Origin: Candidatus Peribacteria bacterium
Lineage (GTDB): Bacteria; Patescibacteriota; Gracilibacteria; Peribacterales; Peribacteraceae
Assembly: GCA_041691135.1 (NCBI GenBank)
Contig: JBEPVF010000001.1
Location: forward strand, 192,001-256,000
Direction: 5' to 3'
Length of the DNA: 64,000 nucleotides
Notes under the pieces: generated by a model
Database searches by the model: none
Seen by the model: only the letters and a program-made list of their open reading frames with translations
Told to the model about the DNA's origin: nothing
Program-made: the position numbers and the translations under genes
Part shown: in pieces, positions 16,902 to 37,140 of the stretch
Position numbering within the stretch: position 1 is the first letter of the stretch
Layout: each line of letters starts with the position of its first letter

Positions 16902-16976
16902 TGGTGGCCCAGGCCAGAATCGAACTGGCTACGCCTGCCTCTTCAGGGCAGCGCTCTACCAATGAGCTACCGGGCC
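16902..16976 (-). tRNA. tRNA-Phe(GAA)
   Basis: Cloverleaf; anticodon arm CTGCC-CTGAAGA-GGCAG; encoded CCA. Confidence 0.96.
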
Positions 16977-17108: not shown

Positions 17109-17200
17109 GGGCCGTAGCTCAGCTGCCTAGCTCCACGAAGTGGAGCGTAAAGAAATAAGGCGCTGCGCGTTGCCTGAGGCACTCGAAATTTTCACACCAT
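17109..17200 (+). repeat. duplicated tRNA-Ala 5' end plus CCTAGC-hairpin mini-element
   Basis: GGGCCGTAGCTCAGCTG (17109-17125) matches 17202-17218 at 16/17, then CCTAGCTCCAC-GAA-GTGGAGC. Confidence 0.75.
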
Positions 17201-17276
17201 GGGGCTGTAGCTCAGCTGATAGAGCGCTGCATTCGCATTGCAGAGGTCGAGGGTTTGAGTCCCTTCAGCTCCACCA
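17201..17276 (+). tRNA. tRNA-Ala(CGC)
   Basis: GGGGCTG acceptor with G3-U70; anticodon arm CTGCA-TTCGCAT-TGCAG; CCA. Confidence 0.95.
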
Positions 17277-36818: not shown

Positions 36819-36978
36819 GGGAGAAAGGAGAAGATAGTAAATCAATGCACCAACCGGTGGACCTCTTTTTGACGCCTATCGAAAAGCAGCCTTACGATTT
36901 TTCTCTGTTTCTTGGCTTTCTCATGCCATCAGACTCTTGCTCTGCAGAGAAAACGTAGTGTGTTAGTATGAGTCACAA

Positions 36979-37063
36979 GGGCCAGTAGCTCAGTTGGCCT
37001 AGCTGCCGGAACGGCAGTGTGATAGACAAGTTGCACTTTTCTGAGCAGTTCATTTCTTACATC
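36979..37063 (+). repeat. duplicated tRNA-Ile 5' end plus CCTAGC-hairpin mini-element
   Basis: GGGCCAGTAGCTCAGTTGG identical at 36979-36997 and 37064-37082, then CCTAGCTGCCG-GAA-CGGCAGT. Confidence 0.8.
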
Positions 37064-37140
37064 GGGCCAGTAGCTCAGTTGGTTAGAGCACAGGACTTAT
37101 AAACCTGTGGTCGGTGGTTCAAGTCCACCCTGGCCCACCA
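37064..37140 (+). tRNA. tRNA-Ile(UAU)
   Basis: Cloverleaf; loop CT-TAT-AA (37096-37102); A73 and CCA; A31-A39 mismatch. Confidence 0.9.

Follow-up and report, generated by a model that had tools for sequence, protein, structure and literature searches.

Type A, a short geneless insert with a conserved hairpin that lies between an intact tRNA gene and an upstream copy of that gene's own 5′ end, is probably a lineage-specific, non-autonomous insertion element that has spread among the tRNA genes of one Peribacteria-like family. It was recognized at tRNA-Ala and tRNA-Ile in the window (the whole 64,000-nt stretch of DNA that was analysed), where the original prediction had proposed, as one option, a very small non-autonomous element with the D-loop as its target, which rebuilds the 5′ end of the tRNA. 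Recurrence in the family, clean empty alleles, tandem arrays and the likeness of inserts within a genome all speak for that proposal. Mobile DNA in tRNA genes normally preserves them with a copy of the 3′ end. In contrast, type A is an element of ~75 nt without a gene, and the 5′ end of whichever tRNA is hit becomes duplicated. The setting is one of ~1.2 Mb genomes in which most tRNA genes are single-copy, and up to ~40% of the tRNA genes are occupied in one genome.

Two tRNA loci in the window

ARAGORN and Rfam located four tRNA genes in the window, two of which are preceded by the fragment and hairpin layout. The features of both loci are given below together with the scores of two covariance models. 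R1, built from 22 sequences, comprises the D-arm part, the hairpin and the A-rich tract, and R2 contains no tRNA sequence.

17109-17125, + strand: 17-nt 5′ fragment ("decoy") that matches nt 1-18 of tRNA-Ala(CGC) in decayed form
17126-17200, + strand: type A insert of the Ala locus, 75 nt, between both repeat copies (R1, 58.8 bits; R2, 43.3 bits)
17126-17129, + strand: CCTA of the Ala locus, directly 5′ of the hairpin
17130-17146, + strand: hairpin of the Ala locus, GCTCCAC/GAA/GTGGAGC, 7 bp with a GAA loop, between CCTA (5′) and GT (3′)
17147-17148, + strand: GT of the Ala locus, directly 3′ of the hairpin
17149-17169, + strand: A-rich tract (17149-17159) and then GCGCTGCGCG, from the alignment of 64 units
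17165-17169, + strand: conserved GC(T/G)C-G motif within GCGCTGCGCG, from the same alignment
17201-17276, + strand: intact tRNA-Ala(CGC) (ARAGORN; Rfam RF00005, 64.9 bits)
36979-36997, + strand: 19-nt 5′ fragment, identical to nt 1-19 of tRNA-Ile(UAU)
36998-37063, + strand: type A insert of the Ile locus, 66 nt (R1, 51.4 bits; R2, 26.7 bits)
36998-37001, + strand: CCTA of the Ile locus, directly 5′ of the hairpin
37002-37018, + strand: hairpin of the Ile locus, GCTGCCG/GAA/CGGCAGT, 7 bp, closing (first) pair G-T
37019-37020, + strand: GT of the Ile locus, followed by 43 more bases to the tRNA
37064-37140, + strand: intact tRNA-Ile(UAU) (ARAGORN; Rfam, 73 bits)

The original prediction described the Ala locus as a 17-nt tRNA fragment followed by CCTAGC, a 7-bp hairpin with a GAA loop, and GT. 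This layout is present, but the fragment is decayed and not an exact copy: nt 8-18 are identical to the gene itself and the mismatches are located in the acceptor part. The insert extends for 31 further bases after GCGCTGCGCG until the tRNA begins, and the distance from the start of the decoy to that of the tRNA is 92 nt, within a base of the 93 nt predicted. The same layout had been noted in front of tRNA-Ile, and it was confirmed at 36979-37063 with an exact 19-nt fragment. The pattern TAGCTCAG-N(2-6)-CCTAGC matches twice in the window, compared with 0.00 matches expected from 100 shuffles. The layout also appears, with no alternative joint, in the contig of another assembler from the probable source run, which does not represent independent DNA. 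Among the sequencing runs, only the probable source DNA run contains the stretch, and the other 23 (one of them RNA) hold at most 0.07 of its words.

A scan with the sigma-70 consensus returned no site at the Ala locus and one site at the Ile locus, 80 nt upstream of the fragment. The latter is a promoter-like TTGACG-18-TACGAT at window positions 36869-36898, and both of its hexamer regions are conserved in the empty Ile loci of two relatives (G001 and G004). As a candidate -10 box the A-rich tract was unconvincing because the final T is missing in many copies. A tRNA-Ile with the anticodon UAU, as at 37064-37140, was also found in the relatives G001-G004, G011 and G145. The presence of such a bacterial tRNA-Ile(UAU) suggests that AUA is read without the usual lysidine tRNA.

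Copies in the host genome and anatomy of the unit

The genome of the window (G000, hereafter the host genome), whose DnaK is most similar to records labelled Candidatus Peregrinibacteria / Peribacteria, is a 1.74-Mb assembly of 35 contigs with 50 tRNA genes. The pattern precedes five of them, namely Ala-CGC, Ile-UAU, Ala-GGC, elongator Met and Asp, and at each locus the fragment corresponds to the first 17-19 nt of its own tRNA. A sixth insert, which is the second (tandem) unit at Asp, is cut by the end of contig C10. Five further tRNA genes of this genome (Gln-CUG, Thr-UGU, Leu-UAG, Leu-CAG, and Val-CAC) have shorter copies of their start (6-13 nt) followed by other hairpins, and the direct repeats at these sites reach 9-15 nt when leader bases are counted. 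Outside the window, ARAGORN also predicted a tmRNA at 121,023-121,434 of contig C2, whose tag peptide would be long (29 residues).

The unit was dissected in a biased sample of 151 tRNA loci, which yielded 76 units at 22 anticodon species. Each fragment corresponds to the tRNA that follows it. In 64 units the duplicated stretch runs to tRNA nt 17-20, and in nine to nt 12-14; in 68 of the 76 it also takes in 0-5 nt of the leader. The length is 90-99 nt in 60 of the 76 units. The type A insert itself measures ~66-80 nt and the flanking repeats 17-23 nt. Among the 67 type A units, 49 fragments are exact and 18 contain one mismatch. The junction is always located immediately 5′ of NTAGAGC in the D-arm. 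The alignment of 64 distinct units showed a fixed order: CC(T/C)AG, a GC-rich hairpin of 6-7 bp with a loop of 3-4 nt, CGT, ~11 A-rich bases, GC(T/G)C-G, a variable stretch, and a TTCTTTC-like pyrimidine-rich motif, after which the tRNA follows. The elements of the left end, from CCYAG to GC(T/G)CG, keep their order and spacing over the 64 units, which represent at least 20 tRNA species. The insert has no terminal inverted repeats, and the right end is unconserved and lacks an inverted copy of the left end. Tandem arrays of two to three units are common. In practice, direct-repeat units of ~95 nt break assemblies, with many copies sitting at contig ends, and the fragments can mislead tRNA annotation.

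The hairpin is supported by covariation among 43 homologues. Specifically, pairing is intact in 96.2% of the cells, and double-sided changes occur in 44 cells, spread over six of the seven pairs; none of 500 shuffles scored as high, and slid controls paired in 24-58% of cells. The wobble pairs are biased towards the sense strand (8 G-U vs 2 A-C), which is weak evidence for a hairpin structure at the RNA level. The variant of the GC(T/G)C motif tracks tRNA nt 26, with GCGC accompanying G26 in 18 of 20 instances (Fisher p 2e-5, without correction for relatedness), and the motif extends complementarity to tRNA nt 26-27 in 19 of the 64 units versus 10.6% of cross pairs. This complementarity is a hint of a possible contact with the 3′ strand of the D-stem. 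At tRNA-Ile(GAU) of G015 (locus L004), ~50 extra bases are present inside the hairpin loop of a type A insert with the stem intact, and therefore the loop tolerates insertions. In G003 (locus L109), the tRNA-Phe next to the orthologue of window positions 16902-16976 has its own fragment and hairpin insert with another junction (CCAGG...).

Distribution among related genomes

The original prediction had proposed a scan of tRNA upstream regions in this and related genomes. In addition to the five of 50 host tRNAs, the exact pattern was found in 13 of the 61 related genomes, all belonging to one family, while the reversed-pattern control gave two hits in the 61. The 28 distinct exact-pattern sites that were read have a complete tRNA within 230 nt in 21 cases; the other seven are cut by contig ends or a masked stretch. 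R1 matched 106 of the 151 family genomes and 60 of the 84 genera (~355 matches), with a maximum per genome of 20 in G079, and 12 in G145. In a class-wide sample, 12 of the 15 family genomes matched, and no match was obtained in 135 genomes from 33 other families of the class. In the genomes surveyed, type A is restricted to one Peribacteria-like family. The hits of R2 in five genomes are all located at R1 sites except one (G079:C13:10697).

A profile of the hairpin alone recovered 48 distinct inserts across the sequence searched. A tRNA starts after 43 of them, at a distance of 30-89 nt in 38 and of 160-179 nt in five (arrays), and the remaining five are cut by locus ends (four) or masked (one). 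All 43 assessable type A inserts thus precede a tRNA, in one orientation, and no tRNA-less type A insert was present among the 48. Longer copies carrying a nuclease or recombinase, which the original prediction had envisaged, did not appear among these inserts, nor did any other gene-extended or longer autonomous copy, and the insert of 66-80 nt contains no ORF. Only tRNA reached the gathering score in Rfam; the best hits in the two inserts of the window (E 0.45 and 0.93) are far below the cut-off. No description of such an element was found in full-text searches of the literature, and passages of PMC4736985 report 46 tRNA genes and no such repeats.

Empty alleles and relationships among inserts

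The tRNA genes of two congeners, G145 and G105, were fully surveyed. A fragment precedes 18 of the 44 tRNAs in G145 and 7 of the 40 in G105, and at least 12 loci differ. Empty orthologous sites, which had been suggested as a check, were cleanly observed in G105 for elongator tRNA-Met and tRNA-Thr(GGU): what lies upstream of the tRNA in the empty allele can be aligned with the sequence 5′ of the fragment in G145, and at tRNA-Met the flank common to both alleles includes the TGCATAAT -10 box. The filled allele exceeds the empty allele by the insert plus one repeat only (20 nt in Met and 17 nt in Thr), and the insertion point is G18/G19 of the D-loop. Since this is the only difference, the insert lies inside the gene at the D-loop with the old promoter upstream of the fragment. 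At these two loci, the right end of the insert has only 0-2 nt in common with the native leader. Presence and absence in the congeners could alternatively reflect precise deletion between the repeats. The -10-like motif TANNNT at positions -24 to -12 was found upstream of the outermost fragment at 18 of 32 loci, compared with 9 of 32 upstream of the real tRNA. Thus, where a motif limited to two loci, an absence of empty sites and an absence of stem covariation would have spoken against the original prediction, the opposite was found on each count.

The two loci of the window also vary among relatives. tRNA-Ile(UAU) is filled in the host and empty in G001 and G004, in an alignment that is ambiguous at ~65% flank identity. 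The orthologue of the Ala-CGC locus is occupied in G001 and G004 by a second element, type B, in place of type A, and therefore element types turn over at one site. The most similar inserts belong to different tRNAs of one genome (Pro-UGG and Ile-GAU, 81%; Lys-UUU and Lys-CUU, 82%), whereas the best orthologous pair between genomes shows 74% identity, an argument that copies passed from one tRNA gene to another after the divergence of the genera. Between orthologous inserts of G000 and G002, the hairpin is kept despite complete replacement of the stem. This points to selection in place and is compatible with a host function and a selfish element alike.

The possibility that the insert is a copy of the local upstream region was rejected, with insert and upstream flank no more alike than shuffled flanks in 21 of 23 tests; the two tests that beat all shuffles both concern tandem arrays. 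Duplications reaching beyond the tRNA start were observed at Ala-CGC in G005 (35 nt), at locus L127 (at least 12 nt), and at Thr-UGU in G079 and Arg-UCG in G145 (~30-40 nt). These leader/promoter duplications (12 to ~40 nt) and the arrays fit later unequal exchange between the repeats.

Type B element and its duplications

Type B, which follows the shorter tRNA fragments, has an inner stem and an outer stem of 6 bp separated by a TTCG/CTAC internal loop, and covariation supports this structure. It is dispersed and is present in 136 of the 151 family genomes with more than 2,000 matches. Examples in the host genome are as follows.

C4:49,964-50,007, -: type B copy
C2:82,517-82,560, -: type B copy
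C12:18,510-18,553, -: type B copy
C1, ~323,458-323,560, -: type B in the start of an exonuclease gene (L249:3020-3160), outside the window

A direct repeat of at least 10 nt abuts the 5′ edge in 10 of 42 type B copies and in 0 of 42 shifted controls. Nine of the ten repeat-flanked copies are at tRNA genes with the junction after nt 13. The tenth is at the start of a 5′-3′ exonuclease gene (Pfam 5_3_exonuc_N from residue 1), where type B is located between two copies of the first 26 nt of the ORF, counted from the ATG. The upstream copy has three synonymous third-position differences, and the short frame that it opens is closed by a TGA overlapping the true ATG. On the other hand, 29 of the 42 type B copies have no flanking repeat, and the long duplication may therefore not be an automatic product of the insertion chemistry. 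The 5′-restoring duplication extends beyond one element and beyond tRNAs, yet it is unseen at most type B sites.

Predicted folding of fragment, insert and tRNA

Nearest-neighbour folding of fragment, insert and tRNA favoured an acceptor stem closed by the fragment at 45 of 48 loci (median -3.7 kcal/mol). With shuffled inserts, the decoy preference was -4.7 kcal/mol compared with -3.8 kcal/mol for the natural inserts, which were higher than their own shuffles at 31 of 43 loci (p 0.014; loci not independent). Because the preference is equal or stronger with shuffled inserts, the competition stems from the duplication and provides no evidence of an evolved switch; if anything, the natural insert is predicted to soften the decoy competition. 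As a second option, the original prediction had considered a regulatory leader whose decoy 5′ strand competes for the acceptor stem. The capture of the 3′ strand is indeed predicted at 45 of the 48 loci, but shuffled inserts do likewise; a regulatory role of the decoy is conceivable and draws no support from the folding. Tertiary contacts and the order of folding during transcription, which lie outside the folding model, both favour the native cloverleaf. A closed mini-tRNA was also rejected: the insert holds no partner for the acceptor strand of the fragment (longest helix, own 3.9 vs cross 3.8 nt).

Decayed fragments were found at Ala-CGC in the host genome and at Thr-UGU and Phe in G145. 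Many tRNAs are empty in the sister genome, and therefore the feature is dispensable. RNase P RNA was detected in all five genomes tested, so that the long leader is removable in the ordinary way.

Proposed mechanism and alternative explanations

Type A lies at one fixed point, right after G18/G19 of the D-loop and just 5′ of NTAGAGC, and is flanked on both sides by nt 1 to 17-19 of the tRNA, in many cases together with 0-5 nt of the leader. The downstream copy completes an intact tRNA gene, and the upstream copy is a dead 5′ fragment behind the original promoter (promoter positions were assigned solely from motifs). In the proposed mechanism, the old promoter would transcribe fragment, insert and tRNA as one precursor, from which RNase P would remove a leader of ~95 nt. 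The duplication may be made at insertion, by staggered cuts about two helical turns apart followed by gap filling, or alternatively by a template switch that re-enters at the tRNA start. Recombination between the repeats could subsequently keep or homogenise the insert and would also make the tandem arrays.

Among the alternatives to an insertion element, a functional pre-tRNA leader is doubtful, though the likeliest of them. Here, the 5′ copy and the hairpin would be kept to regulate or assist tRNA maturation, either as a folding switch or RNase P decoy acting through the 3′ acceptor strand, or as a common promoter/leader module that co-regulates many tRNAs. The covarying hairpin that is kept at orthologous loci (G000 vs G002), the wobble pairs favouring the sense strand (8 G-U vs 2 A-C), and the 49 exact fragments among 67, which persist although the inserts have diverged to ~65% identity, all speak for such a leader. 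The decoy-closed fold predicted to be more stable at 45 of 48 loci, the tracking of nt 26 by GC(T/G)C with its complementarity to nt 26-27 (uncorrected for relatedness), and the resemblance of the insert's 3′ half to native tRNA leaders (TTCTTTC motif) are also in line with it. However, the same tRNA is filled in one congener and empty in the other at a minimum of 12 loci, some loci have decayed fragments, the decoy preference is stronger still with shuffled inserts, the insert offers no partner to the fragment's acceptor part, and no known RNA family in Rfam matches.

A purely local origin without movement is less probable still. In this scenario, slippage at an upstream hairpin that was already in place would have duplicated the promoter and 5′ tRNA region of each locus on the spot, and the likeness between loci would come from shared promoter/leader constraints and gene conversion. 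This could account for the loci that duplicate far more than the tRNA start (12 to ~40 nt), for the pyrimidine motif that native leaders have too, and for tandem arrays as the product of unequal exchange. It is at odds with the two clean loci, where only the insert and a repeat differ and the right end is like the native leader over just 0-2 nt. It also fits poorly with upstream flanks that are no more insert-like than shuffles (21/23), with a left end conserved in order and spacing over 64 units and 20 or more tRNA species, and with a junction that is always at the same tRNA position. The repeats might instead be read as the attL/attR cores of a tRNA-targeting island remnant, i.e. as the scar of a site-specific integrase, given that integration into tRNA genes is a classic pattern and att cores are typically direct repeats of ~20 nt. 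This reading is highly improbable, since the duplicated 5′ end is specific to each of at least 22 tRNA species, which an att site borne by the element cannot supply, and the ~95-nt units contain no gene, form arrays, and include no integrase island among the 48 inserts.

The insertion element may, more tentatively, belong to a new class of "self-healing" elements. Such an element would be an enzyme-less, hairpin-ended module moved by a Y1/HUH-type or other enzyme recognising single-strand hairpins that mistakes the tRNA's NTAG and anticodon-arm hairpin for an element end. Duplication from about the first nucleotide would save essential single-copy genes, type B would act likewise at tRNA nt 13 and at a protein start codon, and the inserts would be portable leader/promoter modules that rewire tRNA expression. 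This extension is possible but far from the favoured expectation. If long-stagger or hairpin-guided integration is true, a parasite would have a novel means of being harmless by design, and portable leader/promoter modules could arise by this route.

Candidate enzymes and comparison with known systems

Cas1, reverse transcriptase, DDE_Tnp_1 and Y1_Tnp were searched for in five genomes with completeness of 92-100%, and none of these enzymes could be tied to the element. With tRNA-targeting islands and prophages that use tyrosine integrases, type A shares insertion in a tRNA gene that is kept functional by part-duplication. Those islands carry the 3′ part of one tRNA together with an integrase, whereas type A duplicates the 5′ part of whichever tRNA is hit and carries no gene. 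It resembles MITEs and long-duplication IS elements as a small non-autonomous insert with direct target repeats. The IS1634/IS1549 group makes unusually long target duplications and provides a precedent for those of 17 bp or more. Unlike MITEs, type A has no terminal inverted repeats, only one conserved end, and repeats of 17-23 nt in place of a short fixed duplication. A link to the long-duplication IS group is disfavoured by DDE_Tnp_1, which was detected in two of the five genomes but not in G145 with its many inserts.

CRISPR spacer integration and casposons offer a similar arrangement of promoter/leader, repeat, inserted DNA and repeat, with a staggered attack at both ends of a long target that becomes duplicated. 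Casposons use tRNA genes as targets and give 14-15 bp duplications. Type A differs from these systems in that Cas1 (PF01867) is found in none of the five genomes, the inserts are one conserved family and not variable spacers, and terminal inverted repeats are lacking. A target-primed retroelement would need a reverse transcriptase; RVT_1 (PF00078) was detected in one of the five genomes, the host, and is absent from G079 and G145 despite their many copies (20 and 12).

REP/REPIN sequences, which RAYT enzymes mobilise, offer several parallels. Like them, type A is non-coding, multi-copy and lineage-specific, and has a short, GC-rich, covarying hairpin flanked by short unpaired tags that are conserved. 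The tags of REP hairpins are GTAG or CGTC (PMC3733652), and those of the type A hairpin, CC(T/C)AG (5′) and CGT(C) (3′), are similar but not identical. Genes for Y1_Tnp (IS200/RAYT-type) were detected in all five genomes, two of which have no type A inserts. None of the four Y1_Tnp loci of the host genome shows similarity to type A or B elements within ±700 nt (best local scores 19-24), so unlike in REP/RAYT systems, no Y1 gene of the host is flanked by type A. REPs are mostly extragenic and often form head-to-head pairs, whereas type A occurs only inside tRNA genes, in one orientation, and comprises ~75 nt with a conserved non-hairpin tail and flanking repeats of 17-23 nt; long target duplications are not reported for REPs in the consulted part of PMC3733652. 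The same part mentions Rickettsia palindromic elements and intragenic REPs, in which, as in type A, palindromic repeats are tolerated inside genes. Those elements stay in frame within the product, while type A is kept out of it by rebuilding the 5′ end of the gene. The tRNA gene itself reads NTAG directly 3′ of the insertion point, followed by the anticodon-arm hairpin. On the basis of this sequence and of the resemblance between the tags, an enzyme that recognises hairpins in single strands was ranked first as the mover, as a leading guess of low confidence. Type A also offers a concrete, testable substrate for the many orphan Y1 transposases of candidate-phyla-radiation bacteria.
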